Part shown: piece by piece, positions 2,358-36,131 of the stretch
Layout of the letters: each line of letters starts with the position of its first letter
Numbering within the stretch: position 1 is the first letter of the stretch
Assembly (NCBI GenBank): GCA_036786505.1
Contig: DAIQRF010000001.1
Location: 1 to 43,071, forward strand
Length of the DNA: 43,071 nt
Source of the DNA: Casimicrobiaceae bacterium
GTDB taxonomy: Bacteria; Pseudomonadota; Gammaproteobacteria; Burkholderiales; Casimicrobiaceae
Direction: 5' to 3'
Translations under genes and position numbers: made by a program
The notes under the pieces: generated by a model
The model's input: the letters and a program-made list of their open reading frames with translations, nothing else
Databases searched by the model: none
What the model was told of the DNA's origin: nothing

Positions 2358-2563
2358 CCGTCACTGTACTGATCCGCCGCAACGTCTACACCGACTGGCT
2401 GGAGGCTCACGTCGCGCAAGACGGCCGGAATGGCGAGAACCTACTGCGCGGCCGCAAGTGCCCGAGCGTGAGCGATGCCAAGCAGCGCGTGCGGGCGGAA
2501 CTGCGCATCGCTATCGCCGCCGGCGTCGACATAGTTTGGGACGTTGAGGAAGATGGCGACTAA
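2354..2563 (+). CDS. Hypothetical protein (69 aa)
   Basis: ORF track. Translationally coupled on both sides. Confidence 0.7.
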   Translation: MTVTVLIRRNVYTDWLEAHVAQDGRNGENLLRGRKCPSVSDAKQRVRAELRIAIAAGVDIVWDVEEDGD

Positions 2564-3170
2564 GAAGGTAGTGACCACCAAGCCCGGACTCAAGGCCGCG
2601 ATCTATGTGCGCGTGTCGACCGCCGACCAGAAGAATGAGATGCAGCTCACCGAGCTGGGCGAATACGCCGCCCGCATGGGGTGGCAGACCGTCATCTATT
2701 CCGACAAGACCAGCGGAACGAAAGCCAAGCGGCCCGGCCTCGATGCGCTGATGGCCGACGCACGCGCCCGCAAGTTCGACGTCGTGATCGTTTACAAGCT
2801 GGACCGTTTCGCCCGCTCCCTCCAGCATTTAATCACTAACATTCAGCTCCTGGACACCTTCGGCGTACGCTTCGTGTGCGTGACGCAGGGCATCGACACC
2901 GACCGCAACAACCCGGCGTCGCGCCTGATGCTGCATATCCTCGGCGCGGTGGCTGAGTTCGAGCGCGGCATCATCGTCGAACGGGTCAAGAGCGGTGTGG
3001 CTGAGGCTCAGCGCCAGGGTAAGCATTGCGGACGTTCGAAGCGTGTATTCCGGCGTGACCTAGCAGAGCGGCTCCGTAAACAAGGGTTGAGTCTGCGCGC
3101 GATAGGTCTGAAGCTGGGTGTGCCGTTTTCGACGATTGCAGACGCCCTGAAGCCTGTACGGAAAGGCTGA
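2553..3170 (+). CDS. Small serine recombinase, resolvase/invertase type (205 aa)
   Basis: AAIYVRVSTADQ catalytic-Ser motif, RPGLDALM...DVVIVYKLDRFARS, C-terminal HTH GLSLRAIGLKLGVPFSTIADAL. GAGGAAG RBS before ATG 2553. Confidence 0.9.
   Translation: MATKKVVTTKPGLKAAIYVRVSTADQKNEMQLTELGEYAARMGWQTVIYSDKTSGTKAKRPGLDALMADARARKFDVVIVYKLDRFARSLQHLITNIQLLDTFGVRFVCVTQGIDTDRNNPASRLMLHILGAVAEFERGIIVERVKSGVAEAQRQGKHCGRSKRVFRRDLAERLRKQGLSLRAIGLKLGVPFSTIADALKPVRKG
2554..2562 (+). promoter_or_regulatory. TGGCGACTA motif copy overlapping the recombinase start codon
   Basis: aTGGCGACTAag. Same 9-mer as at 11825, 13211, 14293, 24383 and 35938. Confidence 0.3.
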
Positions 3171-3352
3171 AATGAATGCCCCACCGGGGCAAAGCAACCA
3201 CGGGGCCATTCTTCTCCCTTTTTGGCGTGCGAAAACCAAAAGTTTCACGTACACTTTTAGGGCCAAAAACGGCTCGAACCGACGCCAATCGGCCATTTTC
3301 CAGTGTGTAAGGAATCCTGACTACCTGGGCGGAAGCCACGCCGCGCCCACGA

Positions 3353-3384
3353 AAGTCCACGACGGACGGCCCCCCGGAAACTTC
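3353..3384 (+). repeat. 32-bp direct repeat, copy 1 (aagtccacgacggacggccccccggaaacttc)
   Basis: 31/32 identical to 3616..3647. Contains the small hairpin gtcc-acgac-ggac. Ends 3 nt before a TATAGT box. Confidence 0.9.
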
Positions 3385-3387
3385 CGC

Positions 3388-3393
3388 TATAGT
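3388..3393 (+). promoter_or_regulatory. -10-like TATAGT box 8 nt upstream of ATG 3402 (possible leaderless start, poor -35)
   Basis: Read directly. There is no SD between the box and the ATG. Confidence 0.3.
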
Positions 3394-3401
3394 GTGAATC
3401 C

Positions 3402-3614
3402 ATGAACAGCCTGCGCTGGCAACACCATTTACTCGTTTTTCACGGCACTACCGTGGTCGGCACGATCGAGCGCGATGCGTTCGATCGCGGCTGGTGGGCT
3501 TATGGATGCAGGGATGACTGGCAGGACACGCCGCTGCGTTTACACGCATCGCCGACGAAGGCGAAAAAAGCCGTCATGGCATGGGCGGTTGAACGCATCG
3601 AGGACGCGATTTGA
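3402..3614 (+). CDS. Hypothetical Trp-rich protein (70 aa) bracketed by the 32-bp direct repeats
   Basis: ORF track. Protein-like composition. Stop codon abuts repeat copy 2. Confidence 0.6.
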   Translation: MNSLRWQHHLLVFHGTTVVGTIERDAFDRGWWAYGCRDDWQDTPLRLHASPTKAKKAVMAWAVERIEDAI

Positions 3615-3615
3615 G

Positions 3616-3647
3616 AAGTCCACGACGGACGGCCCCCCGCAAACTTC
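3616..3647 (+). repeat. 32-bp direct repeat, copy 2
   Basis: aagtccacgacggacggccccccgcaaacttc, one mismatch to copy 1. Confidence 0.9.
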
Positions 3648-3834
3648 GGGGAGCAGCCATACTTCGCGGTTCGGTGCGCACGACCCCCGCGTTTCAGGGC
3701 TTAGGCCCCCGCTTCGAGTCTACGAGCACTTGTGGGATTGGTGGGCGGCGCGTTTGGCGGTCATGGCGCCGCAGGCGCAGCGCGGCGCGGCGGTGCGCGG
3801 ACGGCCGGCGCCTGGGCGCACGCCACCGTGGGAC

Positions 3835-4122
3835 TTAGCGGCGCGGCGCATTGTACCCGATCGTGACGTTCGCGTTGCGCTGGTCGCCAGCTTTGCTCGT
3901 AGCGGTGAGGACGTACTCGCCAGGGCCCATCCCTATCACCTGAGCCAGCACGCTCTCTACCTCGTCTTTGCGGCCGTCGACGCGCTTGGTTAAGAAGCTC
4001 TTCGGGGTTCCGAGCGTGGACCAGGAGGCGATTCCGTGCGAGTAGCCGCGATTGCTGTCGCCGACTGACACGGATGCCCAGAAGGTGCTCTCGGTCTTGG
4101 TGGTTGCTTTGTTGTTTTCCAT
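3835..4122 (-). CDS. Hypothetical protein (95 aa) with its own promoter, moron-like
   Basis: ORF track. Less GC-biased codons. The C-terminal part PGEYVLTATSKAGDQRNANVTIGY resembles a beta-sandwich strand pattern. Confidence 0.75.
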   Translation of the reverse strand: MENNKATTKTESTFWASVSVGDSNRGYSHGIASWSTLGTPKSFLTKRVDGRKDEVESVLAQVIGMGPGEYVLTATSKAGDQRNANVTIGYNAPRR

Positions 4123-4128
4123 GACTTG

Positions 4129-4157
4129 ATTATGGGGGATCGCGCCCCCTTATTCAA
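4129..4157 (-). promoter_or_regulatory. Sigma70-like promoter TTGAAT-17nt-CATAAT, predicted leaderless mRNA at ATG 4122
   Basis: Minus strand reads TTGAAT aagggggcgcgatcccc CATAAT caagtc ATG. The spacer holds the palindrome GGGGGCGCGATCCCCC. Confidence 0.5.
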
Positions 4158-4161
4158 GTGA

Positions 4162-4178
4162 ATTCGACACCTAGTACC
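4162..4178. promoter_or_regulatory. Second copy of the operator-like motif ATTCG-ac-ACCTAGTACC
   Basis: Shares ATTCG plus the 10-mer ACCTAGTACC with 514..529 (opposite strand). Overlaps the -35 and spacer of the candidate promoter 4163..4191. Confidence 0.35.
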
Positions 4179-4191
4179 AAAGATTTAAACT
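4163..4191 (+). promoter_or_regulatory. Candidate rightward promoter TTCGAC-17nt-TAAACT pointing into the inverted-repeat segment
   Basis: Back-to-back with the 4129..4157 promoter (5 bp between the -35 boxes). Followed by ~150 nt of non-coding sequence with pairing potential (ggctcgggga / tccccgagcc). Confidence 0.35.
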
Positions 4192-4349
4192 AGGAACCGG
4201 CACGGCGCGCTGGCTCGGGGAAGCGGAGCGGACGGTGGCAGTATCTGGGAAGGGCGATCCTGGGGTTCGAAACCTGGGGCATGCAACGTGTACCGGATCA
4301 TCGACGGCGCTTGTTACGGCTTTTCGCTCGGCTCCCCGAGCCGCCTTAC

Positions 4350-4379
4350 TTCGCGAAGGGAACTATCACTTTGACTCCC
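4350..4379. repeat. Left arm of a perfect 30-bp inverted repeat
   Basis: ttcgcgaagggaactatcactttgactccc is the exact reverse complement of 4581..4610. Confidence 0.97.
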
Positions 4380-4557
4380 GTTGAGACGGCCCATTCCCCA
4401 TGTCTTTAATTAAATGAACAGCCTCACGCAGCTGCCCCCGAACAGCCGCATGTAACTGCTTGCTCCATGGGCTGTCGTCCATGTCAATCACGAAATTAAT
4501 CATATACAGCGCCCGCTGCAACTTGCTTTCCTGTGTATTTGGTTTTTTCGTCAGCAT
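4366..4557 (-). CDS. 63-aa ORF inside the inverted-repeat-bounded segment
   Basis: ORF track. AAGGAA 11 nt upstream. Its ATG overlaps the stop of gene 4551..5015 (ATGCTGA). Its stop codon lies in the left repeat arm. Confidence 0.55.
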   Translation of the reverse strand: MLTKKPNTQESKLQRALYMINFVIDMDDSPWSKQLHAAVRGQLREAVHLIKDMGNGPSQRESK

Positions 4558-4580
4558 GGTTTTGTGTTTCCTTTAGCCAA
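4380..4580. other. Candidate invertible DNA segment (201 bp, visibly AT-richer than its surroundings)
   Basis: Bounded by perfect 30-bp inverted repeats. A serine invertase-type gene lies 1.2 kb away. No target-site duplication. Confidence 0.45.
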
Positions 4581-5015
4581 GGGAGTCAAAGTGATAGTTC
4601 CCTTCGCGAACGGATCGCGGCGCGCGATCGCCCGGCGCAACTGCGGCTCCGAAGCGTCGACGACGCCGGGCGGCTCGTTGAAGCGGAAGCGCCCGGACGG
4701 CTGCCAACCCGACGCGATTTTATCCGGGAACCGCGTGCCCCAAGGAAGGCCCCGCCCCGACAGGAACGCGAACGTCGACCCCAGCCCCGTTGGATCGCCA
4801 GGAATCATGCACACGAAGCGCTGCGGATCGTTGCCGAAGGTAACGACGTCGCCGACGTTGAACAGAGCGGCGCGCGCGACCTCCACTGGGACCAAGAGTC
4901 CTGCGCGCGCCGGCGGCAGGAAGATCTTCTTGGCGCCCGGCACCCACAGCGCGCGTTCGGGATCGAGGACGAGCGCGGCGGCGATCGCGCCCAGGAAGCC
5001 GCGCCGCGACGTCAC
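4551..5015 (-). CDS. Twin-arginine (Tat) signal protein (154 aa)
   Basis: GTG start in a GTGA overlap. N-terminus (M)TSRRGFLGAIAAALVL fits S/T-R-R-x-F-L plus a hydrophobic stretch. The C-terminus runs through the right repeat arm. Confidence 0.8.
   Translation of the reverse strand: MTSRRGFLGAIAAALVLDPERALWVPGAKKIFLPPARAGLLVPVEVARAALFNVGDVVTFGNDPQRFVCMIPGDPTGLGSTFAFLSGRGLPWGTRFPDKIASGWQPSGRFRFNEPPGVVDASEPQLRRAIARRDPFAKGTITLTPLAKGNTKPC
4581..4610. repeat. Right arm of the perfect 30-bp inverted repeat
   Basis: gggagtcaaagtgatagttcccttcgcgaa. Read as exactly 10 codons (FAKGTITLTP) of gene 4551..5015. Confidence 0.97.
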
Positions 5016-5320
5016 CCGCGCGCCACCAGCGCCGACGGATAGAGCGCCGCGAACGCCGCGCGCGTCATCGGCTCACACCGCACCGGCGGGAAACTCCACA
5101 GCGCGTCCATGCGCGTGACGTATTCCCCGCGACGGTCGTCCCAGCGCCGGATCACGCGGATCGACAGGCCTTCGTGCGCGGCCAGCCACTGCGCGTGGAG
5201 GTTCTCGCGCGGGTTGAACAGCGTGTCGCCGATCTTCTTTCTCTGAAGAAGCGGGCGCGTGGCGATCGCCGAGCCCGTGACGGCGGCGGCGACGGACGCG
5301 AGGAACGCGCGGCGGTTCAT
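5012..5320 (-). CDS. Twin-arginine (Tat) signal protein (102 aa)
   Basis: ORF track 5012..5365, Met16 at 5320 in an ATGA overlap. MNRRAFLASVAAAVTGSAIA. Confidence 0.8.
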   Translation of the reverse strand: MNRRAFLASVAAAVTGSAIATRPLLQRKKIGDTLFNPRENLHAQWLAAHEGLSIRVIRRWDDRRGEYVTRMDALWSFPPVRCEPMTRAAFAALYPSALVARG

Positions 5321-5550
5321 TCTAAATAGATCAGGGCGCCCAGCGCGCCATTCGCGCTGAGCCAATCCGCTGCCTCGTCGTGGTGATCAAACGGCGCGGG
5401 AGCACGGACGGCGCCAACGCGCGCGAACCATTGTTGCTTGACGACGTTGTAGTAGAGCAATCCATCGCTCGCGAGTAGATCGCGGCTCGCCATGCCGCCC
5501 GCGGCGACGACCACGCGCACCGGCGACGACCGCGAGCTCCAGTCATTCAT
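5317..5550 (-). CDS. Hypothetical protein (77 aa)
   Basis: ORF track. ATGA coupling on both sides. Confidence 0.7.
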   Translation of the reverse strand: MNDWSSRSSPVRVVVAAGGMASRDLLASDGLLYYNVVKQQWFARVGAVRAPAPFDHHDEAADWLSANGALGALIYLE

Positions 5551-5693
5551 GCGGCGACCGGCAGCTCCTCGTCGGGATCCGGATACGGCTCGTCGTCCGG
5601 CTCCGGCCTGATGACCAGCGCGGCGCCGACGAGAGATCTATCCATCAACTGCGCGGCGCGCGTGAAGTCGGGCAACATTCGAAGCGTAGCCAT
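5547..5693 (-). CDS. 48-aa acidic/Pro-rich micro-ORF
   Basis: Hand-translated MATLRMLPDFTRAAQLMDRSLVGAALVIRPEPDDEPYPDPDEELPVAA. GGGAGG RBS 6 nt upstream. ATGA overlap downstream. Confidence 0.45.
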   Translation of the reverse strand: MATLRMLPDFTRAAQLMDRSLVGAALVIRPEPDDEPYPDPDEELPVAA

Positions 5694-5727
5694 ATCAACC
5701 TCCCTCTACGAAAGACCTTTGTGCACG

Positions 5728-5949
5728 TTAGACGCCCGTCGCTTCGATCAGCTCAAAGATGCGCGCAACCGCCGGGTTCGCGTCCAGCAGATCCAAGAGC
5801 TCCTTCAGCCGGTCGATATTGAGGGCCTCACGTTCGGCGCGATAGAAGGCGCCGTTCGCGCGTTCACGCAGCGACGGCCGCGCGGTGCCGCCGAGCGCGC
5901 CGTGGGCGGCGCTTCCCTGGAAGTCTTTGAGTGTGGCGCTCGGCTGCAC
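5728..5949 (-). CDS. Hypothetical protein (73 aa, GTG start)
   Basis: ORF track 5728..6051. GTG at 5949 lies 1 nt after the upstream stop, with GGAG upstream. The longer form is Arg-rich and overlaps the upstream gene. Confidence 0.55.
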   Translation of the reverse strand: MQPSATLKDFQGSAAHGALGGTARPSLRERANGAFYRAEREALNIDRLKELLDLLDANPAVARIFELIEATGV

Positions 5950-5950
5950 G

Positions 5951-6292: not shown

Positions 6293-6316
6293 GGTGGTGG
6301 TTCTCCCTTGGCAGCC

Positions 6317-6346
6317 AGTATGCGCGCCAGCGGCGCGCCACGTCAA
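6317..6346 (-). promoter_or_regulatory. Sigma70-like promoter TTGACG-18nt-CATACT for the leftward operon starting at 6292
   Basis: Read directly on the minus strand. 24 nt, including the RBS, lie between the -10 box and the ATG. Confidence 0.45.
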
Positions 6347-6394
6347 GGGCTACGCGGAGCTGAACGCGCAGGAAGTCGGGTCGAAGAGAATTTC

Positions 6395-6465
6395 GTGAAG
6401 ACGGAACGGCTGGCGGCGATGGTACTCGCAACCACTATCAAGTCAACCGCCAGCCGTCCCTTCAC
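6395..6465. other. Long imperfect hairpin in a divergent intergenic region
   Basis: gtgaag/cttcac, ggac/gtcc (one bulge) and ggctggcgg/ccgccagcc arms (about 19 bp) around a ~30-nt loop. Confidence 0.4.
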
Positions 6466-9759: not shown

Positions 9760-10969
9760 CGCCAGCCGCCTTTGTTTTTGCGCCCAGAACCTCCCGCGCC
9801 CATTCGACGTCGTGCGGCGCCGCGTTCGGATCCGCCAGCGTCGTCTCGGCGTCGCGCCGATATTGGGCGTCGCGCGCCTCGGCTTGCTGCGCATCCCGCA
9901 CCGTGCGTTCTTCTTCCCGCCGGGCTGCTTCCCGTGCCCGACCGAGCGGCGGCCCGACGGCGTCGTTCGCTAGCGTCTTCAGGAGCAGACCCACTGGGCT
10001 GTGCGCGCCCGGCGAGGCGCGCAGCTTGGCCGCGGCCAGGTGTACAACCTCCAACGCCGTGAGCGCCGGCTCCACCGCGCGGCACCTCTGTAGGAGCTGC
10101 GCCGCCGTTTTGAGGTTCAACCCCTCGATTCGGTGAGCCACCATCACCACCTCAGAAACGTTGGTTTCAGCAGAAGGTGGTGGTGGTGATTCCTCTACTG
10201 TGTGGTGTGGTGTGAAAGGCAATAATGATGGGCCTTTTTGTACACCGCCCGATGCGGCCGTGTTCAACGCCATGGACACCGCCGCAGTACCATTCCCGTG
10301 TACAAAGGAAGGCTCGTCGAGCAGCATGGGCTGGAACCAGCGCTGCGCCTGCGCCGCTTTTTTCGGTAGTACGATTTTTGATGCGCCGAGCGACCGGAGC
10401 GTGGTAACCTCTACCCGTGAGAGTTCATGACGAAGCCCAGCGAGGCCCTCCAGAAAAGCCTCCTGGCGCCACGCCGTGAGCGCGGTCCAAGTCGTTCGTA
10501 TTTGGCTACGTTTCTCGGCTGACTGCTTCCAATAGAAATCAACGAGATAGCCCGGAAAACTCCCGTGTACCCAGGAGTTCTCGTCGGCGGTTGCGTCGGC
10601 CACCGGCGCCGCCGGAACCGGTATCTCTTCGGGCACATCGGCCCGATACCAGAGCTGCGCCTTCTTCAACCGGATGCGCCCCTCGGCGACCAACGCCGTG
10701 CAGTGGTTGAGTACCGTCTTAAGCGCCAGGCCGAGATCCGCCGCGCACGCCTCGACGCGTAGCGGGCGGCCCGCTTCGCCGATGCACTTGGGTGAGCCCC
10801 GCGCGACCGAGTGGAGTTTCACCCACGCGAGCACGCGCTCCTTGCCCTCGCCGTTCAGCATCTGCCACCTCCAGTGCTCGATGGCCTCGGGCTCCCAGCC
10901 GCCCTTCTTGCCGCTTTCGCGGCACGCCGCCATCAGCTCGTTGTATTTGAGGCCGCCGGCGCCCTTCAT
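9749..10969 (-). CDS. Winged-helix DNA-binding protein, possible replication initiator (406 aa)
   Basis: ORF track 9749..10996, Met10 with AGGGGG RBS. wHTH-like DLGLALKTVLNHCTALVAEGRIRL. The function is a guess from size and position. Confidence 0.8.
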   Translation of the reverse strand: MKGAGGLKYNELMAACRESGKKGGWEPEAIEHWRWQMLNGEGKERVLAWVKLHSVARGSPKCIGEAGRPLRVEACAADLGLALKTVLNHCTALVAEGRIRLKKAQLWYRADVPEEIPVPAAPVADATADENSWVHGSFPGYLVDFYWKQSAEKRSQIRTTWTALTAWRQEAFLEGLAGLRHELSRVEVTTLRSLGASKIVLPKKAAQAQRWFQPMLLDEPSFVHGNGTAAVSMALNTAASGGVQKGPSLLPFTPHHTVEESPPPPSAETNVSEVVMVAHRIEGLNLKTAAQLLQRCRAVEPALTALEVVHLAAAKLRASPGAHSPVGLLLKTLANDAVGPPLGRAREAARREEERTVRDAQQAEARDAQYRRDAETTLADPNAAPHDVEWAREVLGAKTKAAGDGE

Positions 10970-11238
10970 CGTGAGCCCCCTGGGATCTGGAAGCAACTTC
11001 CGATAACAGATAATTCGGCAACTGAATGAATGGTCATCAGCACCCCTCTCAAGGCGGTCGGGCTGAGCGTGGGAAGAGTCCCACCGGGGCGGCAGGCACC
11101 ACGCTCAATCCCAAGCTTCTTACGATCTCCGGGAGCTACCCAGCGAACGTGAAAATCATAACACAGCGGCACCGGAGGGTGCTCGCGAACGAACGGCGCC
11201 ACAGCGGGCGCAGTTCGGGCAGACAAATAATTGAGCAT
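10966..11238 (-). CDS. Possible small protein (90 aa), weak coding signal
   Basis: ORF track 10966..11304, Met23. ATGA overlap with the 406-aa gene. Low third-position GC bias. Confidence 0.35.
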   Translation of the reverse strand: MLNYLSARTAPAVAPFVREHPPVPLCYDFHVRWVAPGDRKKLGIERGACRPGGTLPTLSPTALRGVLMTIHSVAELSVIGSCFQIPGGSR

Positions 11239-11266: not shown

Positions 11267-11296
11267 TTGCGCGGCGAGGAGTGCTGCGAATAGAAT
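11267..11296 (+). promoter_or_regulatory. Candidate promoter TTGCGC-18nt-TAGAAT
   Basis: Read directly. Same -35 hexamer as the promoter at 476..504. About 30 nt upstream of a strong intrinsic terminator. Confidence 0.4.
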
Positions 11297-11302
11297 AAAA
11301 CC

Positions 11303-11363
11303 AATCACTCGAAAACCTTTCGATCAGGGCGCGCCGTCGAACACCGGCGCGCCCTCCCTTTTT
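11303..11363 (+). ncRNA. Candidate ~60-nt small RNA (two stem-loops)
   Basis: Predicted start ~7 nt after TAGAAT. SL1 tcgaaa-acc-tttcga (11309..11323). SL2 is the terminator. No ORF fits. Confidence 0.4.
11326..11363 (+). terminator. Intrinsic terminator
   Basis: 11-bp GC-rich stem agggcgcgccg / cggcgcgccct, 8-nt loop, then cccttttt. Confidence 0.7.
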
Positions 11364-11469
11364 CCGAACCGAACCGCAACAAATTACCGCTTGAGCTTAC
11401 AACCGATCGCGGGCGAAGCGCTACCGCGCGCGCGAGCCAAGTGGCGGCGGACCTTGCGACCATAGAGTC

Positions 11470-11733
11470 GTGACCCATGCGCGCGGCGTTTGCGACAAGA
11501 AAATAGCAGCCGCCATCAATGCCCGGCACGCGCAGAAGCTTGTCGCGCTCGGTATGACCGCGGCCGACGTCGCGCGGCGGATGGGCGTCGCGCCTTCTAC
11601 CGTCGCGAGTTGGCTGAAGCCCCGGCCGCGGACGACGATCAAGGCGCCTACGAAGCCACCGAGCCATGCGAACTATGAGCCCCGTGAGGGCGCGCACGGT
11701 TATCGCCGCGACGTTTCCAAGCCCGCAGCCTAA
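11470..11733 (+). CDS. HTH DNA-binding protein (87 aa), first gene of the long rightward block
   Basis: GTG start. HTH GMTAADVARRMGVAPSTVASWLK. Confidence 0.75.
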   Translation: MTHARGVCDKKIAAAINARHAQKLVALGMTAADVARRMGVAPSTVASWLKPRPRTTIKAPTKPPSHANYEPREGAHGYRRDVSKPAA

Positions 11734-11824: not shown

Positions 11825-11835
11825 TGGCGACTATA
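11825..11835 (+). promoter_or_regulatory. TGGCGACTATA motif copy, 14 nt before the sigma-1 ATG
   Basis: 10/11 match to TGGCGACTACA. Confidence 0.4.
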
Positions 11836-11849: not shown

Positions 11850-12422
11850 ATGCCGACTGTCATCTGCATTGATACTGGCCTCCACCGAAAGCGCGTCCTC
11901 GAAGCCCGCAACGCGCTCGTCGAAGCCCACATGTACCTCGTGCCGGATATCGCCGGCCGGATCCGCGCCGGCCTACCACCCTCGTTCGATCTCGAAGATC
12001 TGATCAGCGAGGGAAATATCGGCCTCATCCAAGCGGCCACCCGCTACAGGCCGAGCGCGCACAACCGAACTCCCTTCTCCGCATACGCACGCAAGCGGAT
12101 ACGCGGCGCCATCATGGACAGCGTGCGCCGCCGCCGCTACACCGACAACACTCACCAAGCGTTGCCGGTAGAGATCACGAACTCGCGCAGCCTATCGTAC
12201 AGCAACACCGCGGAGGCCTCCGTCGACGAAGCCACTACGCTGCGCCGCCTGGAGCGCGCAATGACGTGGCTGCCGCGGGCGAAGCAACGCCTCCTCCAGA
12301 ACCTCTACTGCGATCGCATCAAGCCGCGCCCCACCGCCGCGTTCAAGCGGCGCAAAGACGTGATCGAAATCCACCCGGTCGCCCTCGCACAACTGAAAGT
12401 GGAATTCAGGCGAGCCGCGTGA
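11850..12422 (+). CDS. Sigma-70 family factor 1 (190 aa)
   Basis: Region-2-like DLEDLISEGNIGLIQAATRYRP...FSAYARKRIRGAIMDSVRR. Weaker region-4-like C-terminus. Met23 of ORF 11784..12422. Confidence 0.85.
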   Translation: MPTVICIDTGLHRKRVLEARNALVEAHMYLVPDIAGRIRAGLPPSFDLEDLISEGNIGLIQAATRYRPSAHNRTPFSAYARKRIRGAIMDSVRRRRYTDNTHQALPVEITNSRSLSYSNTAEASVDEATTLRRLERAMTWLPRAKQRLLQNLYCDRIKPRPTAAFKRRKDVIEIHPVALAQLKVEFRRAA

Positions 12423-13009
12423 CAGGCGACGAGCGTGACGCGCTAATCCTCAGCCTGGCGCCGCAAGTAAAAAAGCTTGCCTTTCGGAAATGGAATGCGA
12501 CCCCGAAGCGCGTGGGGCTCGATGAGCTGACCTCGGCGGCATGGCTCGGCGCCATCGCCGCGGTGGACCGCTTTGAGGTGGAGCGCGGCGTGAACCTCGC
12601 GACCTACGCGGACTGGAAAATTCGCAGCGCGATTGCCGATTACTTACGCAGCCTCGATCCGTTGACCCGTGGTCATCGGCGTCAGGTTAGCGCCGGAGAA
12701 TGCGAGCCGGTGATCGTGATGTCGCTACAGGACCGCGTGCGCGCCCTACACGCCGGCTCCGACGATTGCACGCTCGCGGAGACTCTCCCCGATCGCCGCG
12801 CCGCACTAGAACAGAGGCGCGCAGAGGAGCACGCGTCGCTTCAAGCGATCTACGCGCGTGCGCAATTGCAGCCGCGCAGTGCCAAAGTGCTGAAGCGCTG
12901 GGTTGAAGGGGAGACTCTTCTGGAAATCGGCGCGTCCATCGGCGTCGTTGAATCCCGCGCCTCGCATATTTGTAGCGCCGCGATCCGCAAGCTGCGCGCC
13001 GCCGCGTAA
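12419..13009 (+). CDS. Sigma-70 family factor 2 (196 aa)
   Basis: GTG start in a GTGA overlap. Region 2 ELTSAAWLGAIAAVDRFEVERGVNLATYADWKIRSAIADYLR. Region 4 LLEIGASIGVVESRASHICSAAIRKLR. Confidence 0.85.
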   Translation: MTGDERDALILSLAPQVKKLAFRKWNATPKRVGLDELTSAAWLGAIAAVDRFEVERGVNLATYADWKIRSAIADYLRSLDPLTRGHRRQVSAGECEPVIVMSLQDRVRALHAGSDDCTLAETLPDRRAALEQRRAEEHASLQAIYARAQLQPRSAKVLKRWVEGETLLEIGASIGVVESRASHICSAAIRKLRAAA

Positions 13010-13034: not shown

Positions 13035-13298
13035 ATGAAAAACGCAGAAATTGTGAAAGTCCTCGATAGGCTACGGAAACGCTATGGCTTGATGGTCTGG
13101 GACGACTGGAATCGACTTACAATAGTCGAAAAGATCGAGATGATTTGCTGGTCGCTTGAATCCAGGGCACTCGGCTTGGCGCGGTGCCCCGCCCCTCGCA
13201 ATCCTCTGCATGGCGACTACAGAGGAGAATGTCCACCAAAGCCGCAGCCCGCGCGCCCGCGCCCTACGCCGCCCTCGCCGACGAACTCGGCGCCCTGA
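13035..13298 (+). CDS. Hypothetical protein (87 aa)
   Basis: Met45 of ORF 12903..13298. GAGGGAAG RBS. Its 3' end overlaps the next gene by 70 nt. Confidence 0.55.
   Translation: MKNAEIVKVLDRLRKRYGLMVWDDWNRLTIVEKIEMICWSLESRALGLARCPAPRNPLHGDYRGECPPKPQPARPRPTPPSPTNSAP
13211..13225 (+). promoter_or_regulatory. TGGCGACTACAGAGG motif copy, 3 nt before ATG 13229
   Basis: 15-mer identical to 24383..24397. Confidence 0.45.
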
Positions 13299-13648
13299 AA
13301 AAAGAATACGCGCTCCTCATCGCGCCGTTCGCGCTCAAGAAGCCGCGCATGGAAGCGCTGGAAAAACAGCTCCGCGATGCCTGCCCCGTCGCGGCCGACG
13401 CAGAGTGGACCGCCCACGGCCTCCGCTTCGATGTCATCCTCGGGCAGCGCGCCGAATGGCGCATCGTCAATATCACGAAGCTGATCAAGGCCATCGGACA
13501 GAAAGCGTTTAACGCCTTCGCCACCGTCTCGCTGAAGGACCTCGAAGCGCACCCGGCGGTCTCGGCCGACACACTGGCCACCATCATCCAAAAGAACCGC
13601 GTCGGACCGCGGACGCTAAAGACCGTCGAGAAGGGAACCGCCGCGTGA
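13229..13648 (+). CDS. Hypothetical protein (139 aa)
   Basis: Met16 of ORF 13184..13648. GAGGAGA RBS. Confidence 0.7.
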   Translation: MSTKAAARAPAPYAALADELGALKKEYALLIAPFALKKPRMEALEKQLRDACPVAADAEWTAHGLRFDVILGQRAEWRIVNITKLIKAIGQKAFNAFATVSLKDLEAHPAVSADTLATIIQKNRVGPRTLKTVEKGTAA

Positions 13649-14292: not shown

Positions 14293-14303
14293 TGGCGACT
14301 ACA
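14293..14303 (+). promoter_or_regulatory. TGGCGACTACA motif copy, 4 nt before the NusG-like ATG
   Basis: Read directly. Confidence 0.45.
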
Positions 14304-14307: not shown

Positions 14308-14895
14308 ATGACAGCACAGCGCAAAGTTCCGGCGCCTGTGACAGACGAAGCGGGAGCGCGCGCACTCCTTCGCGCGCCCCGCGCGTCTTCCTGGTATGCG
14401 CTGCACGTGCTGGCCAACGCTGAATTCGTGGTCGAGAGCGCCCTGATCGGCTACGGAATCGAAGCCTTCCTGCCCACCTACGCCGAAAAGACCCAGTGGA
14501 GCGATCGCGTAACCACAACGATCCGGCCGCTCTTCCCCGGCTACCTGTTCGTGAATTGCGAAGGCCGCCCTTCGGAAACAATCGTCCGGCCGCGCCGCGA
14601 GATCTTGCGCATCGCCGGCATCATTAAAGTGCTACCCACCAACCTCAACCCCCAGCCCGTCGACCGCGAACAGATTGAGAACGTGCGCCGCGCCCTAGCC
14701 GCCCGGCTGCCGGTCACACGCTGCGAGTATCAGAGCGGCGATGAAGTATTGATCGACAAAGGTCCGCTCGCCGGCGTCAAGGGCATCGTTCAGCGCACCA
14801 AGCGCGGCACCGAAGTGATTATCCGCATCGAAATGCTGCAGCGGTCGGTCTGCGTGCAGGTCGACGCGGCCGACGTCCTGAAGGCCACCACATGA
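14308..14895 (+). CDS. NusG/RfaH/UpxY-like transcription antitermination factor (195 aa)
   Basis: NGN-like WYALHV...GIEAFLPTY...RPLFPGYLFV. KOW-like GDEVLIDKGPLAGVKGIV. Confidence 0.9.
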   Translation: MTAQRKVPAPVTDEAGARALLRAPRASSWYALHVLANAEFVVESALIGYGIEAFLPTYAEKTQWSDRVTTTIRPLFPGYLFVNCEGRPSETIVRPRREILRIAGIIKVLPTNLNPQPVDREQIENVRRALAARLPVTRCEYQSGDEVLIDKGPLAGVKGIVQRTKRGTEVIIRIEMLQRSVCVQVDAADVLKATT

Positions 14896-16627: not shown

Positions 16628-17965
16628 ATGGCCGCGAAGAAGAACCAGCCGCCGGCGCCGCCCGAGCGCCTCACCGTGGAGATGTGGCCCATCGCGCGGC
16701 CGATCCCCTACGCGAAGAATGCCCGCAAATTGAGCGAGCGCGCCATCGAAACGCTGGCCAGCTCGCTCAAGGAATTCGGATGGCGCCAGCCGATAGTGTG
16801 CGACGCCAAGGACGTCATTGTGGCCGGCCACACCCGCCTGATGGCCGCGCAGGCCCTCGGGATGACGGAAGTGCCCGTTCACGTCGCGGCAGGCCTCACG
16901 CCGCGCCAGGTGCGCGCCTACCGGATCATGGACAATCGGTCGGCCGACGAAACTACCTGGGACCTGGCTATGCTGCCCGAGGAGCTGGCCGAGCTGCAGG
17001 CCATGGGGATGGACCTGGCCCTGACCGGCTTCGATATCGGCGAGCTGGACAGCCTGATGCGGCCCCCGCCGCCTGAGGACGAGGACACAGCCCCCACGCC
17101 CCCCAAGCGCCCCACGACGCTGCTGGGTGACTTATGGAACCTGGGCCTCCACCGCGTGCTCTGTGCCGATGCGACGCTGCCCGACGCGACCAAGAAGCTT
17201 CTGGAGCCAGGCAGCGCGACGATTGCCTTCACGGCGCCCGCGATCGGGGAAGCCGAAGACGCAGCCGACGCCGGCAAGGCCGACCTGGTTCTCACCGATC
17301 CGCCCTATAACGTCGACTACACCGGCTACACCAAGAAACGTCTGAAGTTGAAAGGCGACGCCATGACGGCGCCGCAGTTTATCGAATTCCTGGGCGCGAC
17401 CTTTAAGGCGTTCGCCGGCGCGATGAAGCCGGCCGCCAGCCTCTACGTTTGCCACCCGTCGCTCTTTCAGCGGGAATTTCAGAACGCCCTCGAGTCCAGC
17501 GCGTTCAGCATCCGCACGCAGATCATCTGGGCAAAGAACACTTTCGGTTGGGGATTCGGCCGCTACAAATTTCAGCATGAGCCGATCTTCTACTGCCACC
17601 TGCGCGGGCAGAGTGATCGCTGGTTCGGCGACAAGACACAGTCGACGCTGTGGGCAGCCAACAAGCCGGCCGCTAACCGGCTGCACCCGACGATGAAACC
17701 GATCGCGCTGATCGAGCGCGCACTGGAAAACAGCTCGAAGGCCCGCGACATCGTCCTGGATCTTTTCGGCGGCAGCGGATCCACGCTGATCGCGTGCGAA
17801 AAACTTGGCCGCTGCGCGCGGCTGATGGAGCTGGATCCAGCCTATGCCGACGTCATCGTCGAACGCTGGCAGATTTACACCGGCAAGGTCGCGACGCTCG
17901 CGGGAGACGGCCGAACATTTGCGGAGGTTAAGGCCGCAAGAGCAGGGAAGAAGAATGCCGCGTAG
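16628..17965 (+). CDS. ParB-like nuclease domain fused to an N6/N4 DNA methyltransferase (445 aa)
   Basis: ParB N-terminal pattern IVAGHTRLMAA. Methyltransferase DPPYN motif (VLTDPPYNVDY) and FGGSGST. Confidence 0.92.
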   Translation: MAAKKNQPPAPPERLTVEMWPIARPIPYAKNARKLSERAIETLASSLKEFGWRQPIVCDAKDVIVAGHTRLMAAQALGMTEVPVHVAAGLTPRQVRAYRIMDNRSADETTWDLAMLPEELAELQAMGMDLALTGFDIGELDSLMRPPPPEDEDTAPTPPKRPTTLLGDLWNLGLHRVLCADATLPDATKKLLEPGSATIAFTAPAIGEAEDAADAGKADLVLTDPPYNVDYTGYTKKRLKLKGDAMTAPQFIEFLGATFKAFAGAMKPAASLYVCHPSLFQREFQNALESSAFSIRTQIIWAKNTFGWGFGRYKFQHEPIFYCHLRGQSDRWFGDKTQSTLWAANKPAANRLHPTMKPIALIERALENSSKARDIVLDLFGGSGSTLIACEKLGRCARLMELDPAYADVIVERWQIYTGKVATLAGDGRTFAEVKAARAGKKNAA

Positions 17966-24382: not shown

Positions 24383-24397
24383 TGGCGACTACAGAGG
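24383..24397 (+). promoter_or_regulatory. TGGCGACTACAGAGG motif copy, 3 nt before the scaffold ATG
   Basis: 15-mer identical to 13211..13225. Confidence 0.45.
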
Positions 24398-24400
24398 TGC

Positions 24401-31519: not shown

Positions 31520-32958
31520 TGGCAGCCACCCTCAGCTTTACGGCCCGCGATGGCAGCCCCGGCTCGCTGACCATCGAGATCGACGCGGTCAACCTGCTTG
31601 CGCAGCAGAACTCCCCGCCGAACCTGCGCCCGCAAGTGAACGCGCCCGTGCTCGCCGGCGACGATAAGCTATTGGGTCTGCCCTGGGGAGTTGGATGGGC
31701 AGTTCCGATGAGCCAGCGCCTGATCGCGCTGGGCGGCAATTCGCGCCTGCAGCTCCTGCAATTTGAATGCCCGTCGCTCGATACGACCGACATGGCGTGG
31801 GGCGCGAGCGGCACCATCGACGCGACGACGGATCCAGTCACCCTGCAGGCCGCGCCCTTCGGTCAAAGTATCTACGGCCGCGCGTTCGCCGTGGGCGACT
31901 ACATCATCTGGAACAACCCGGCCGTGGTCAATGGCCGCTATCAATACGAGATCGATCAGATCACGGCCATAAACCAAAACACGTTCACGCTGGCACGCCG
32001 CGGGCAGGGAGCGGCGCGCGGTACGGCGCAATTCGCGACCGTCATGGCGGCGCAGAGCGGCCAGTTTTTTCAGCTCCTCGATCCTACGCTCTTCGCTTTG
32101 TGGGATGGCACGCACCAGGTCTTTAAATTCCTGTGGGACGGCATGATCGTGAGCGCCGTCTCGGCGACCACCGCAGGCCTCCTGCAGCCGGTCGTCGTGA
32201 ACTTGATCCCCGGCCCGCCGGCAGCCGCCGCAATGGGCTTATCTCTTGGCCCGGCGACGTCGGCCGCCGCGATTCAAAACCAGATCGCCACCGGCCTCTC
32301 GGTTACCGCTCCGGTTTCGACCGGTGGCCTGCCCCAGGCGCCCGGCCTTGGCACGCTCTATGGGGTTGTGACGGTTTCAGCGCTGCCCGGCCCCGGCGAT
32401 CCGCTCACCACCAGCGGCAATACCGTCCTCTTCAACGGCATCCAGTACGTCTGGAGCCAGCGTCAGGGATCGACCGCCTTTCAGTGGGTCGCGCTTGCCC
32501 GCCAGGGTGTGGAGTTCTACGACATCCGAGCCAACCGCGCCAATTACGATGCGACGAAACTCCCGCTCGGCAGTACCTACTTCGAAACCGACACCACGCT
32601 GATTTACACCGTTCAATCGGTCGGCGGCGTCAACGTGTGGCTCTTCTATAGCGGCTACTGGGCACGCACTCAGGCGCAGGTGCCAGGCGTCGGCGCAACC
32701 CTCGGCCCGAACGATAACGACCTGCGGATCCGCACCACCGACACCCAGCACGTTTACATCTGGACCGGCGCCGTGTGGCACTTCGACGGCGAAGGCTCCG
32801 GCTTCTATACGATCTCCGGTACCGGGACCTATCCATTCGGCGGCACGTCCGCGACGTGGGGGATCGCGAACGGCTCAACTTACGCCGTCTCACAGGACGA
32901 CGGAACCACGGCGAACGTGGTCTCGATCATCGCGGCGACTGAATATTTGAGGCTCTGA
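31519..32958 (+). CDS. Tail-associated structural protein (479 aa)
   Basis: ORF track. TGATG junction. Position in the tail module. Confidence 0.8.
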   Translation: MAATLSFTARDGSPGSLTIEIDAVNLLAQQNSPPNLRPQVNAPVLAGDDKLLGLPWGVGWAVPMSQRLIALGGNSRLQLLQFECPSLDTTDMAWGASGTIDATTDPVTLQAAPFGQSIYGRAFAVGDYIIWNNPAVVNGRYQYEIDQITAINQNTFTLARRGQGAARGTAQFATVMAAQSGQFFQLLDPTLFALWDGTHQVFKFLWDGMIVSAVSATTAGLLQPVVVNLIPGPPAAAAMGLSLGPATSAAAIQNQIATGLSVTAPVSTGGLPQAPGLGTLYGVVTVSALPGPGDPLTTSGNTVLFNGIQYVWSQRQGSTAFQWVALARQGVEFYDIRANRANYDATKLPLGSTYFETDTTLIYTVQSVGGVNVWLFYSGYWARTQAQVPGVGATLGPNDNDLRIRTTDTQHVYIWTGAVWHFDGEGSGFYTISGTGTYPFGGTSATWGIANGSTYAVSQDDGTTANVVSIIAATEYLRL

Positions 32959-32961
32959 GCC

Positions 32962-34098
32962 ATGGCAACTGAATTCATCGACTCCTTCGGAATTTACGTT
33001 ACTAACTCGGTCAGTACCGGCGCGAGCGCGGTCTCCCTCTACGAGCGATGGACCGGCATCGGCGACGGGAACCACAGCCTGTCAGTAGCCGCCGGAAAGG
33101 GCGCGCGCGGCAACCCGGCACTCTGGATCCCATTTGGGGGGGCAATCTACAAGACGCTCTCGCACCAGCAAACTTACACCGTTGGCTTCACGCTCAACAT
33201 GAGCAGCAACGCTGGCGTCGGCGGCGGCGATTTGATCCAGCTCCAAAACACCGCGCAGATCCTCTGCTCGCTTATGGTCAACGCCGACGGATCGGTTTTG
33301 GTTTACGCGAACAACACCACCTCGCTGGTGGTTTGCACGCTGGCCGCCGGCTTCATCCTTGCGAATACGAACTGCTTCATTGAGCTGAAGTCGACGATCT
33401 CCGGAACCAGTAATGTCAACGTTGCCGGGACGGTGAACATCTACAACGCCGCCGGCGCCCTGCTCGCCACCGCAACCGGGAATGTGAACACTGGCCTCTC
33501 GACCAACAGCCTGGCCACGCTGACCGGCTTATTCGGGATGAACGTCGTGCCGGCCTTCGCCGCGGTTTATAACCGCGTCGGGCTGCTCGCCGGCTGCACC
33601 ACAAACGGGCAAGCCTATATTTCGGATCTCTACATCAACACCAGCGCCGGGACCGTGAACACCGGTTTCCTCGGCCCGGTAATCATCGATCCGTATCCGC
33701 TGCCGGCGAGTGACGGCGGCACCCTCCAGTGGACACCGTTGAGCGGCGCGGTCCACTTCAGCCAGATCAACGAGCTGCCTTCTGACGGAGACACGAGCTA
33801 CAACGCGGCGCCCTCTGCCGGCCTCACCGACGCTTATGGATGGGAAGTGGTTACGGCCTTCAGCGGCAGCGTTCACACTGTCCAGATAAGCTATTGCGCG
33901 CGATCGACCGATGAAGGCCCCTGCGCGATCAAAAGCTGCATCGGCCCAACCGGAGCGCTGGCTCAGTCGCCAGCTTTCCCTCTTCCGGGCAATTACAATT
34001 ACTGGCATTTCGCCTTCGATCTCGATCCCACCACCGGCCTGCCCTGGACGGTCGCGGGTTTCAACGCCAACCAAAAAGGCGTGACGAGGAGTAGCTAA
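32962..34098 (+). CDS. Tail fibre/spike-like protein (378 aa)
   Basis: ORF track. Beta-rich Thr/Asn/Gly/Ser composition. Confidence 0.8.
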   Translation: MATEFIDSFGIYVTNSVSTGASAVSLYERWTGIGDGNHSLSVAAGKGARGNPALWIPFGGAIYKTLSHQQTYTVGFTLNMSSNAGVGGGDLIQLQNTAQILCSLMVNADGSVLVYANNTTSLVVCTLAAGFILANTNCFIELKSTISGTSNVNVAGTVNIYNAAGALLATATGNVNTGLSTNSLATLTGLFGMNVVPAFAAVYNRVGLLAGCTTNGQAYISDLYINTSAGTVNTGFLGPVIIDPYPLPASDGGTLQWTPLSGAVHFSQINELPSDGDTSYNAAPSAGLTDAYGWEVVTAFSGSVHTVQISYCARSTDEGPCAIKSCIGPTGALAQSPAFPLPGNYNYWHFAFDLDPTTGLPWTVAGFNANQKGVTRSS

Positions 34099-35013
34099 AT
34101 GGCCCTCCTCTACGATGAGAATTTTCAAAGTTATGCCCTTGGAGCCACTCCTCCGTTCGCGAACCTTTCGGGCTCGGGGATAATCGTCAACACCACGCCA
34201 GGACCTTACGGCGATTCGCAGTGTCTGAAGCAGGGATCCACTCAGGCCGTAACCTATCCGATTCTTCCGACGATCACGCTTGCTCAAGCCCAAGCGGGAG
34301 TCACCTACGCGAGCCTGGGTGTTCCGAGCTACTCGGCTGCCACGGTTTTCCAGGCCCTTTTTATTGATTACTACCCGGCGATGAACGGGCAGATCCTCAC
34401 CTTCAACAGCAATCTCAGTCCGTTTGCCGGGGTGGCGCCCGCTGCCGTGAGAATTCTGAGCGACGGTACCGTGGCGGTCACGGCACCCGCCAGCAGCGCA
34501 GCCTCGGCGAACCAGGCCATCTCCACCTACTCGCTCACCCCCGGCAAGTGGTACTTCTTCCAGACCAACATCAGCTTTTCCAATGACGGCACCTACGTTA
34601 TCGTGACGATCACCGTAGCCGTCAACGGCGTGCCTGTCGTAACCGCGAGCTGGACCACCGGCCAACTTCTCTCAGGCGTTCCGGCACTTTACTGGAACAA
34701 CCTCCAGGTCGGGACCGCCGGCAACGGTGGATACATCGACCGGCTCACGATTTACAGCGACGTCGAAATAATGCCGTCGTTCCCGCACTTGGGAACGCCA
34801 GTGGCGCGCGTAACGCAGGGAGTCATTGAGATTGCACGCCCCACAGTGGCCCCGCCGCCGCCCCCTCCCGGCCCGCCGCCAGGCCCGCCGGTTCCCGCAC
34901 CCGGTGGATGCGCCGAGCAATCGAAGCTGAGCGTGATGCCGGGTCTGAGCGCGGCCGGAACGGCGCCGCCCTCGATTCCTGGACAGACCAACTCGCTCAA
35001 GAGCCAATTATGA
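34099..35013 (+). CDS. Tail fibre-like protein with a C-terminal poly-Pro hinge (304 aa)
   Basis: ORF track. APPPPPPGPPPGPPVPAPGG near the C-terminus. Confidence 0.8.
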   Translation: MALLYDENFQSYALGATPPFANLSGSGIIVNTTPGPYGDSQCLKQGSTQAVTYPILPTITLAQAQAGVTYASLGVPSYSAATVFQALFIDYYPAMNGQILTFNSNLSPFAGVAPAAVRILSDGTVAVTAPASSAASANQAISTYSLTPGKWYFFQTNISFSNDGTYVIVTITVAVNGVPVVTASWTTGQLLSGVPALYWNNLQVGTAGNGGYIDRLTIYSDVEIMPSFPHLGTPVARVTQGVIEIARPTVAPPPPPPGPPPGPPVPAPGGCAEQSKLSVMPGLSAAGTAPPSIPGQTNSLKSQL

Positions 35014-36131
35014 AAAAAGCCATTCTCACCTTATTTCTCGGATCCGTTCTCTACGCGCAGCAAACGCCGGCGCCGACCTTCGTCTATCAGGCCTTGACGA
35101 CGAACGCCAGCGGCCTGATTGTTCCGTGCGCTGGCTGCTCGCTCTACACCTACGCCGCCGGCGGCACGACCGGCAAGGCGACGTACACCACCGCCAACGG
35201 AGCGACGCCCAACAGCAACCCCATCGTGCTCGACTCGAATGGCGCCGCGCAGATGTGGACGACGCCCGGCGTAAGCTACCGCTTCGATCTCTATAGCGCC
35301 GCCCTCGTGCTCATCCGTTCCGTCGACAACGTCCCCGGCGGCACGCTGGCCGGCCAGTCGACCGTCACCGCAAATTATATTTACGCAGGTCCAGCGAGCG
35401 GCGCCGCGGCGGCGCCCGCTTTCCGCGCCGCGGTCCTGGCCGACCTGCCGAGCGCGATCGCGCTGAGCAGCGCGAATTTCGGCAGCCAGGGAACGACCGC
35501 CACCGTGCTTCATGGCAACGCCGGCAGCGCGCTCGCGTTCGGACCCGTCGTCGCGGCCGACTTCGGCGGCTCAGTGCCCGCGCGGACCGCGCTCGCGAAT
35601 CCCAGCGCCGCGGCAGGCACGCCCGCCCAGTCGACGACCCTCGACGTCCTCGCCTACCAGGTCGCGGAGATTCCGGCCTTCGTGCGCGTCACTGCCGACT
35701 TCACCACCAGCGGCGTCGGCACCGCGCTCGAAACGATCACCGGCCTGACCTTCACCATCCCGGCGTCGACCGCGCTGAATGTCCCCTTTCATTGCCACCT
35801 GATCTATCACCAGAACGTCGCCACCGTCGCCGTGGCCTTCGGCCTTGAGGACGTCACGATTTCCCCCACCAATATCGCGGCCATGGGCGAGATTCACACC
35901 GCCGCGGCCGTGATCGCCACAGGCAACCTCGTCGGGTTGGCGACTACAACTGCGACGGCCATTGTTAGCGCGACACCGTCCGCGATCACCACCGACTGGA
36001 ATGCGGAGGTGAGCGGAATGGTCGAAGCGCCTTCGAATGCCGCGTCGAGCGCCATCCAATTCATGGTCTCAACAGCGACGGCCGCCGACACCGTGACGGT
36101 GAGAAGGGGAAGCTTTTGCCAGTTGAATTAA
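35010..36131 (+). CDS. Tail-fibre-like protein with a signal-peptide-like N-terminus (373 aa)
   Basis: Met35 of ORF 34908..36131 in an ATGA overlap. MKKAILTLFLGSVLYAQQ. Then SLYTYAAGGTTGKATYTTANGATPNSNPIVLDSNGAAQMW, a fibre N-terminal-type pattern. Confidence 0.8.
   Translation: MKKAILTLFLGSVLYAQQTPAPTFVYQALTTNASGLIVPCAGCSLYTYAAGGTTGKATYTTANGATPNSNPIVLDSNGAAQMWTTPGVSYRFDLYSAALVLIRSVDNVPGGTLAGQSTVTANYIYAGPASGAAAAPAFRAAVLADLPSAIALSSANFGSQGTTATVLHGNAGSALAFGPVVAADFGGSVPARTALANPSAAAGTPAQSTTLDVLAYQVAEIPAFVRVTADFTTSGVGTALETITGLTFTIPASTALNVPFHCHLIYHQNVATVAVAFGLEDVTISPTNIAAMGEIHTAAAVIATGNLVGLATTTATAIVSATPSAITTDWNAEVSGMVEAPSNAASSAIQFMVSTATAADTVTVRRGSFCQLN
35938..35948 (+). promoter_or_regulatory. TGGCGACTACA motif copy inside the fibre-like gene, ~170 nt before the carrier-protein gene
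   Basis: Read directly. In frame as L-A-T-T. Confidence 0.3.

Follow-up and report, generated by a model that had tools for sequence, protein, structure and literature searches.

The question raised by this stretch of DNA is why a short sequence, TGGCGACTA, should recur along it on one strand, mostly just upstream of start codons, and which factor might read it. The stretch, hereafter the window, comprises positions 1 to 43,071 of contig DAIQRF010000001.1, whose record is a contig of a metagenome-assembled genome labelled Casimicrobiaceae; it is a member of an uncultured family of ~43 kb P22-like podoviruses. The window has a G+C content of 63.6%, and its genes run leftward at ~3.8-11.0 kb and then, in a long block from 11.5 kb on, rightward. 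The answer favoured here, with a rough probability of 0.78, is that TGGCGACTA(Y)A constitutes the -10 element of a phage-specific promoter class, read by host core RNA polymerase in combination with a phage-encoded sigma factor, sigma-1 (11850-12422).

Six copies of TGGCGACTA are present on the plus strand and none on the minus strand, as a preliminary description of the window had reported:

2554..2564, plus strand: TGGCGACTAAG, predicted -10 of a sigma-1 promoter before the resolvase gene

11825..11835, plus strand: TGGCGACTATA, predicted promoter before the sigma-1 gene

13211..13221, plus strand: TGGCGACTACA, predicted promoter of a conserved gene for a protein of 139 amino acids (aa)

14293..14303, plus strand: TGGCGACTACA, predicted promoter of a NusG-like gene, with the lysis, methylase, terminase and portal genes that follow it

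24383..24393, plus strand: TGGCGACTACA, predicted promoter of the scaffold-coat-tail genes

35938..35948, plus strand: TGGCGACTACA, inside the 3' end of the open reading frame (ORF) at 34908-36131, predicted internal promoter

That such a sequence should arise less than once per window by chance had been anticipated, with shuffled controls on both strands proposed as the check; dinucleotide-preserving shuffles contain 0.12 +/- 0.33 copies, with a maximum of one, against the six observed. The 11-mer TGGCGACTAYA is found exactly at five of the sites (0.00 expected), with the copy at 2554 deviating from it. The copies at 13211 and 24383 share an identical 15 nt, TGGCGACTACAGAGG. The distances to start codons also agree with those first described, being 25, 18, 15 and 18 nt to the ATG codons at 11850, 13229, 14308 and 24401, respectively, and the site at 35938 stops short of the carrier-protein gene, 178 nt before TTG 36116.

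Placing these copies in an evolutionary context depended on metagenomic sequences. A megablast search with 22 kb of the window matched no cultured phage, the portal protein is at most 30% identical to that of any cultured phage, and no annotated relative of the window phage was found. The NusG-like protein has ~40 close homologues, encoded on collinear metagenomic contigs of 37-44 kb; an IMG/VR scan with this protein as single query gave no match, and profile-based scans were needed. The relatives' loci considered here (L numbers below) are the regions around the NusG-like homologues, together with regions from profile scans with the NusG-like protein and sigma-1. Twenty loci (359 kb) together have 48 copies of TGGCGACTA on the gene strand, as against two on the opposite strand. 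Conservation at orthologous positions in related phages, another check proposed at the outset, is evident in collinear relatives with NusG-like proteins 36-87% identical to that of the window, in which GGCGACTA is kept while the flanking sequences have diverged. These positions lie before the genes for sigma-1, the 139-aa protein, the NusG-like protein, the scaffold and the resolvase, and also include the in-gene position of the 35938 copy. More distant relatives carry the variants TGGTGACTA, TGCCGACTA, TGCTGACTA and CGCCGACTA, with GACTA invariant throughout. The recurrence of TGGCGACTA is genuine and the motif conserved; we judge it to be functional, and infer its role as a promoter from its sequence and setting.

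Sigma-28 promoters have the consensus TAAAGTTT-n11-GCCGATAA, and the -10 element of Escherichia coli aer reads GCCGACAT (PMC2859248). In the open complex of Pseudomonas aeruginosa, the octamer GCCGATAA covers -15 to -8; a conserved Arg reads the GC at -15/-14, an extended -10, contacts are made to G-12, and A-11 is flipped, unlike -7, which is also not conserved (PMC12784957). When 53 phage sites are placed in this register, their consensus is T-16 G-15 (G/C)-14 (C/T)-13 G-12 A-11 C-10 T-9 A-8, with G-15, G-12, A-11, T-9 and A-8 invariant in the position matrix. GGCGACTA matches GCCGATAA at five of eight positions and the GCCGACTA variant at six, such that the composite octamer characteristic of sigma-28 promoters (G-15, the C-13/G-12/A-11 core and A-8) is present. 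In one relative, L159, the canonical sigma-28 octamer with T-16, TGCCGATAA, is found at 960-968, 8 nt before the ATG of sigma-1, which appears to tie the phage motif to the cellular sigma-28 consensus. In the same register, in which a sigma-28 start would fall ~7-8 nt past the octamer, the predicted -1 is a pyrimidine in 43 of the 53 sites and the predicted +1 a purine in 48. The preliminary description had pointed out that the base before each copy makes an NTG triplet; the T-16 and G-15 of this triplet belong to the motif itself, T being present at 50 of the 53 sites though not a criterion for their selection, and the base preceding them is not conserved (A8 C13 G21 T11).

Upstream of -16, the information content is at most 0.3 bit everywhere, and the sole enriched word, CTGA, represents the stop codons of preceding genes. 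TAAA occurs in the -35 zone of just 2 of 40 sites; a -35 element of the sigma-28 kind, TAAA ~15 bp before the octamer, is not found. The arrangement is that of single-element phage-sigma promoters, namely a phage sigma factor and a recurring strand-specific element before middle and late genes, with no -35. One of the hypotheses first put forward, a -10 region of the form CTAYAR read by one of two phage sigma factors, is therefore supported with sigma-1 as the likely reader, and requires amendment in that the element is the whole TGGCGACTA octamer plus T-16 and not just CTAYAR.

Other promoter types were considered and rejected. Sigma-54 (-24/-12) and extracytoplasmic function (AAC-N16-CGTC) readings each found no upstream element at any spacing. 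A promoter for a single-subunit polymerase of the T7/SP6 kind, suggested by a likeness to GACT..TATA, was dismissed since no such polymerase is encoded among the ~37 ORFs subjected to family searches, a set that took in most large ORFs, and the phage does have sigma factors.

The predicted start sites fall close to start codons. At 49 of 74 sites (29 loci), a start codon is found at -1 to +3 of the predicted +1, the commonest offset being +2 (24 sites) and eight sites having an offset of exactly 0; two further sites were scored as -2 by a first-start rule and are +2 by eye. Most motif copies end 6-10 nt before the start codon, and the genes behind them lack the GGAGG that other window genes carry 5-8 nt before theirs. 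Because the start codons abut the predicted +1 and have no Shine-Dalgarno sequence, near-leaderless mRNAs are predicted, and the simplest reading is that transcripts would start at or just before the start codon, leaving no leader or one of 1-3 nt.

The individual sites illustrate this layout. At 14293, ATG 14308 coincides with the predicted start, giving a predicted leaderless mRNA, and the copies at 13211 and 24383 each place +1 at a G (13227 and 24399) 2 nt before ATG 13229 and ATG 24401. The former is kept in essentially every relative, including one with no NusG-like gene, and the latter is conserved in L003 (18530) and L005 (20109). The resolvase has two conserved candidate starts, ATG 2553, which overlaps the motif, and GTG 2571, 8 nt past it; the predicted +1 (~2570, an A) is 1 nt before this in-frame GTG, and the TAA stop (2561-2563) of the upstream ORF falls within the motif copy. 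Orthologous copies in L125 (18137) and L126 (18145) likewise lie 8 nt before the GTG. The 11825 copy is orthologous to sites in L001, L003, L005, L008-L010, L135 and L149, and has a predicted +1 at ~11841 (G). Finally, the 35938 copy, with a predicted +1 at ~35954 (G), would give a leader of ~160 nt to the genes for an ACP-like protein, a DUF6445-type protein and ejection proteins; it forms a conserved island amid diverged flanks in L125 (8779), L126 (8821) and L127 (8830), with no adjacent start codon.

A conserved hairpin-like sequence, TCGCCgcGCGGGCGtTAAAgCGC, is seen upstream of the scaffold gene in other relatives, where it replaces the motif (L007 ~11085-11130, L008 ~11515-11560 and L010 ~9965-10010).

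A spacing of 6-10 nt is also the usual place of a Shine-Dalgarno sequence, and the canonical form of this is missing from the genes behind the motif, such that the motif might instead act in RNA, as a translational operator, a Shine-Dalgarno substitute or the start of an overlapping upstream ORF (NTG GCG ACT A..). This alternative, which the preliminary description had listed as an operator or upstream ORF, is disfavoured by the start-less in-gene copy, conserved in four genomes, and by copies in some relatives that lie 20-58 nt from the next gene; copies so far from any start therefore argue against a purely translational role. Furthermore, the base that would complete the NTG varies, with CTG and CGG both occurring, the RNA around the six copies folds no more stably than shuffled sequence (z -0.7 to +1.0) and has no shared structure, and there is no Rfam match. 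An explanation purely at the level of RNA is accordingly regarded as most improbable.

The genes most relevant to which factor reads the motif, and others recognised by family searches, are as follows; the labels first given to them (resolvase, two sigma-70-family proteins, a NusG NGN-domain protein, P22-type portal and coat, and a weak PP-binding ORF) proved right:

11850..12422, plus strand: sigma-1, 190 aa, matching Pfam Sigma70_r2, with a sigma-2 domain and a region-4-like C-terminus and no sigma-3 domain

12419..13009, plus strand: sigma-2, 196 aa, resembling FliA/WhiG; it has regions 2 and 4 and retains the Arg aligned with FliA R91

13229..13648, plus strand: conserved 139-aa gene, also found at 6988-7401 of L135 and in other relatives

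14308..14895, plus strand: NusG/UpxY/RfaH-like paralogue with NGN and KOW domains

2553-3170, plus strand: resolvase, from family searches

Elsewhere in the window: P22-type portal and coat proteins, from family searches

Elsewhere in the window: an ORF with a weak PP-binding match, from family searches

Both sigma factors are closest to FliA/WhiG, the flagellar sigma-28 family, in NCBIfam and the PDB, the best PDB match of sigma-1 being FliA (6pmi). The FliA_WhiG alignments cover only the region-2 part of the 224-position model (positions 1-74 for sigma-1 and 2-83 for sigma-2), and sigma-2 scores 79.2 bits where the cut-off is 189.6; TIGR02937, a general sigma-70 model, is the only one whose cut-off is passed. 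Neither protein has the full FliA/WhiG complement of sigma-2 plus sigma-3 plus sigma-4 domains, as the sigma-3 region is missing from each. Sigma-1 retains the equivalents of FliA Y70, R74, R76, D81 and R84.

Sigma-1 is the only sigma factor found in every relative, and the motif co-occurs with it in every relative examined. Sigma-2 is found only in the clade of the window and in L011, L012 and L015, and at least 10 motif-bearing relatives have just the sigma-1 type in the regions covered; sigma-2 appears to be an accessory gene. The residue of sigma-1 aligned with FliA D81 (D87 in P. aeruginosa, where it contacts -13/-12) also varies with the motif. It is D in 17 loci with TGGC, N in two with TGGT and E in three loci with TGCC, the latter occupying at least two places in a rough tree, and sigma-2 remains D in a TGCC lineage.

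The other conspicuous candidate for a reader is the NusG-like paralogue, which scores 94.4 bits against the UpxY family, just below the 100-bit cut-off, and also matches LoaP and RfaH. It is probably an elongation or antitermination factor. The preliminary description had proposed that the motif might be an ops-like non-template-strand element that loads this paralogue. In a paused elongation complex, such loading would make RNA polymerase resistant to terminators and perhaps couple it to ribosomes. Such a proposal draws on the presence of a specialised NusG paralogue here and in most relatives, on the strict strand specificity of the motif, on its beginning with GGCG, as does ops, and on the copy that directly precedes the paralogue's own gene. 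The ops sequence is GGCGGTAGnnTG; the motif resembles it only in GGCG, with no conservation at the G8 position.

A relative lacking the paralogue bears directly on this proposal. IMGVR_UViG_3300027986_000017, a complete contig of 41,962 bp reassembled from five overlapping loci, encodes one sigma-1 homologue (profile E 3e-64) and no second sigma factor. NusG-like ORFs are absent, the strongest profile match having an E value of 0.27 vs 1e-99 for the window and 1e-60 for L130 as controls. Six copies of TGGCGACTA nonetheless lie on its sigma strand, with none on the other, and its sigma-1 gene is followed by the 139-aa gene, a small ORF, a copy of the motif and then lysozyme, which takes the NusG slot. 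Conversely, ~80 cellular loci with UpxY-like homologues of the paralogue have no systematic motif. Because the motif persists without either protein, it can be said to travel with sigma-1, and not with the NusG paralogue or sigma-2.

Loading of the paralogue would also leave unexplained the fixed 6-10 nt spacing to starts that lack a Shine-Dalgarno sequence and the pyrimidine/purine signal at the predicted +1. Neither the ops sequence nor presence dependent on the paralogue is seen and, in place of a single copy in a long 5' leader past a promoter, there are six copies, most of them 6-10 nt from starts, at gene junctions along a 30-kb co-directional block. That the motif is an ops-like site is consequently considered very unlikely. 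The paralogue is plausibly a target of the motif promoters, not the reader of the motif, and may help in the production of long late transcripts.

Both activities might conceivably be combined, with sigma-1 reading the element as a -10 and the NusG paralogue then reading the same non-template sequence, although the chance of this is small. The paralogue would take over as sigma-1 leaves the clamp helices, and leaderless transcripts, having no leader to accommodate an ops site, would pass straight to an elongation factor resistant to terminators and Rho; the NusG-less relative would then represent a lineage that lost the second step.

Alternatively, the motif might be bound by a different phage protein, such as the 139-aa protein (13229-13648) or the product of an 87-aa helix-turn-helix (HTH) ORF (11470-11733), activating or repressing the host sigma-70 RNA polymerase at gene junctions. 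In favour of the first of these, its gene adjoins that of sigma-1 in all relatives, even the one that lacks NusG and sigma-2, always with the motif in front, and no match to the protein was found in Pfam, PHROGs, NCBIfam or the PDB. It could be a cofactor of sigma-1 or an anti-sigma factor. Recognition of the motif by such a protein is nevertheless unlikely: no sigma-70-type -35/-10 pair lies beside the copies, the motif is asymmetric and fits the register of the sigma-28 -10 octamer, canonical GCCGATAA stands at the same place in one relative, and the motif variants go with changes at a sigma-1 position for which contact with DNA is known.

Several observations weigh against recognition by sigma-1 as set out here. 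The best NCBIfam match of sigma-1, FliA_WhiG, reaches just 67.9 bits against the cut-off of 189.6; the protein has Asn at the position of the Arg with which FliA reads the extended -10 (R91 in E. coli, R97 in P. aeruginosa); and it has a region-4-like C-terminus, yet no -35 is seen. The covariation between residue and motif is incomplete, since the two loci with N at the D81 equivalent belong to a single clade, and L132 and L136 are exceptions in having D with CGCC/GGCC; being partial, it is supportive and not decisive. The motif sites are drawn from related phages, such that site counts overstate their independence. With respect to translation, the commonest predicted leader is 2 nt and not 0, GUG would open several of the leaderless candidates, both of which are unusual for leaderless translation, and the 9-nt leader predicted for sigma-1, from ~11841 to ATG 11850, has no Shine-Dalgarno sequence.

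With sigma-1 as the reader, a scheme for expression of the phage genome can be proposed, in which promoter function, binding by sigma-1, the exact start sites and leaderless translation are all inferred from sequence. Sigma-1 would displace the host sigma factor on core polymerase and recognise an extended -10-type element with no -35, in the way that gp55 of T4 recognises its own. Initiation would take place 7-9 nt past the final A of the motif, which puts it on the start codon or at a distance of 1-3 nt ahead of it. Sigma-1 and the 139-aa gene would each have a promoter; another would drive the NusG-like gene along with the lysis, methylase, terminase and portal genes, another the scaffold, coat and tail genes, another, inside the preceding gene, the ejection genes, and the last of the six the resolvase. 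The copy at 11825 would provide positive autoregulation, within a cascade leading from a host promoter to sigma-1 and on to about six motif promoters. Several distant relatives (L012, L013, L015, L016 and L018) lack the motif before sigma-1 and have it before later genes, which fits such a cascade.

The nearest cellular likeness is to sigma-28 promoters, which share with the phage motif an 8-nt composite -10 with G-15, G-12 and A-11, tolerance of G/C at -14 and the lack of a conserved -7; domain 2 of the phage sigma factors is likewise closest to the FliA/WhiG/SigD family. Unlike these promoters, the phage motif has no TAAA -35, has CT and not TA at -10/-9, and adds T-16. Sigma-1 itself differs from the family in being ~50 aa shorter, in having no sigma-3 domain or extended -10 Arg and in scoring far below the cut-off, and the system differs in its phage-gene targets and predicted leaderless mRNAs.

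Control of phage genes by a phage sigma factor with a cognate single-element promoter has precedent. In T4, host core polymerase is guided by gp55, a divergent member of the sigma family, to one -10-like element, the -35 not being conserved (PMC7892883). Gp55 resembles sigma-1 in being a phage sigma that uses one such element, and is unlike it in being a homologue of region 2 only and in that its activation depends on gp33 and the sliding clamp. T4 late promoters have an A/T-rich motif, TATAAATA, which differs from the motif described here; we know of no systematic leaderless layout among T4 late genes. The promoters of phiEco32 gp36 and phage 7-11, tAATGTAtA, are 9-bp single elements before middle and late genes, with a copy before the sigma gene, which is transcribed first by the host and then by the phage holoenzyme (PMC4331800). 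These resemble the present case both in the 9-bp single element read by a phage sigma factor and in the autoregulatory layout, and differ in sigma lineage and motif, and in that the phiEco32 assignments are experimental, whereas those here are predicted from sequence.

Other strand-specific elements are more superficially alike. RfaH with ops, and likewise UpxY and LoaP, pair a short strand-specific element with an encoded NusG paralogue, and ops has GGCG in common with the phage motif. Unlike ops, which occurs once in a long 5' leader, the motif is present in multiple copies that abut starts and persists without the paralogue. Cluster K mycobacteriophages have start-associated sequences (SAS), short motifs that are likewise conserved and strand-specific and that recur a few bases upstream of many starts; they contain the ribosome-binding site and are thought to act in translation. 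The present motif differs in having conserved start-less copies and in matching a sigma -10 element. A literature search on the motif string and on phage FliA-like sigma factors found nothing relevant.

Unusual here are descent from sigma-28 with no accompanying -35, and start sites that are systematically predicted on start codons, leaving almost no leader. The scheme offers a concrete transcription map for an uncultured ~43 kb P22-like podovirus family, in which a sigma-28-derived factor seems to have dropped the need for a -35 and would set starts on start codons. If true, this would be a compact source of orthogonal promoter/sigma pairs, and the natural variants TGGC, TGGT and TGCC, with D, N and E at one contact residue, would inform how sigma-28-type factors read -14/-13.

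Some further sequences in the window resemble the motif or lie in its vicinity. A seventh GGCGACTA falls outside the system:

31893..31903, plus strand: GGGCGACTACA, without T-16

It was rejected as a coding coincidence (Gly-Asp-Tyr), since it is not kept and relatives read GGCGATTAC. A degenerate copy, TTGCGACCATA, at 11454-11464 on the plus strand, 7 nt before GTG 11470 of the 87-aa HTH ORF, may be a weak site or chance. In a scan around the motif copies, terminator counts equalled those of shuffles, and the sole strong hairpin (11326-11365) is not beside any copy. It is part of the divergent control region that precedes the 87-aa HTH ORF; there, at 11268-11365 on the plus strand, a sigma-70-like promoter, TTGCGC-18 nt-TAGAAT, is followed ~30 nt on by this strong terminator-like hairpin, with an 11-bp GC stem at 11326-11355 and a T-run. 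The pair could produce a short terminated leader or a small RNA, and could gate entry into the sigma operon.

Elsewhere in the window, 16628-17965 (plus strand) encodes a ParB N-terminal domain fused to an N6/N4 DNA methylase, a fusion kept in relatives. The ejection-protein module includes, at 36116-36774 (plus strand), a 70-aa ACP-like ORF, which is the source of the weak PP-binding match, and its DUF6445-type neighbour; in relatives this slot is occupied by a GNAT acetyltransferase. At the end of the module, 39311-42646 (plus strand) encodes a protein of 1111 aa whose residues ~540-1030 match phrog_10691 and also phrog_21. The latter carries a portal annotation, but the protein probably belongs to the internal virion or ejection proteins and is not a second portal.

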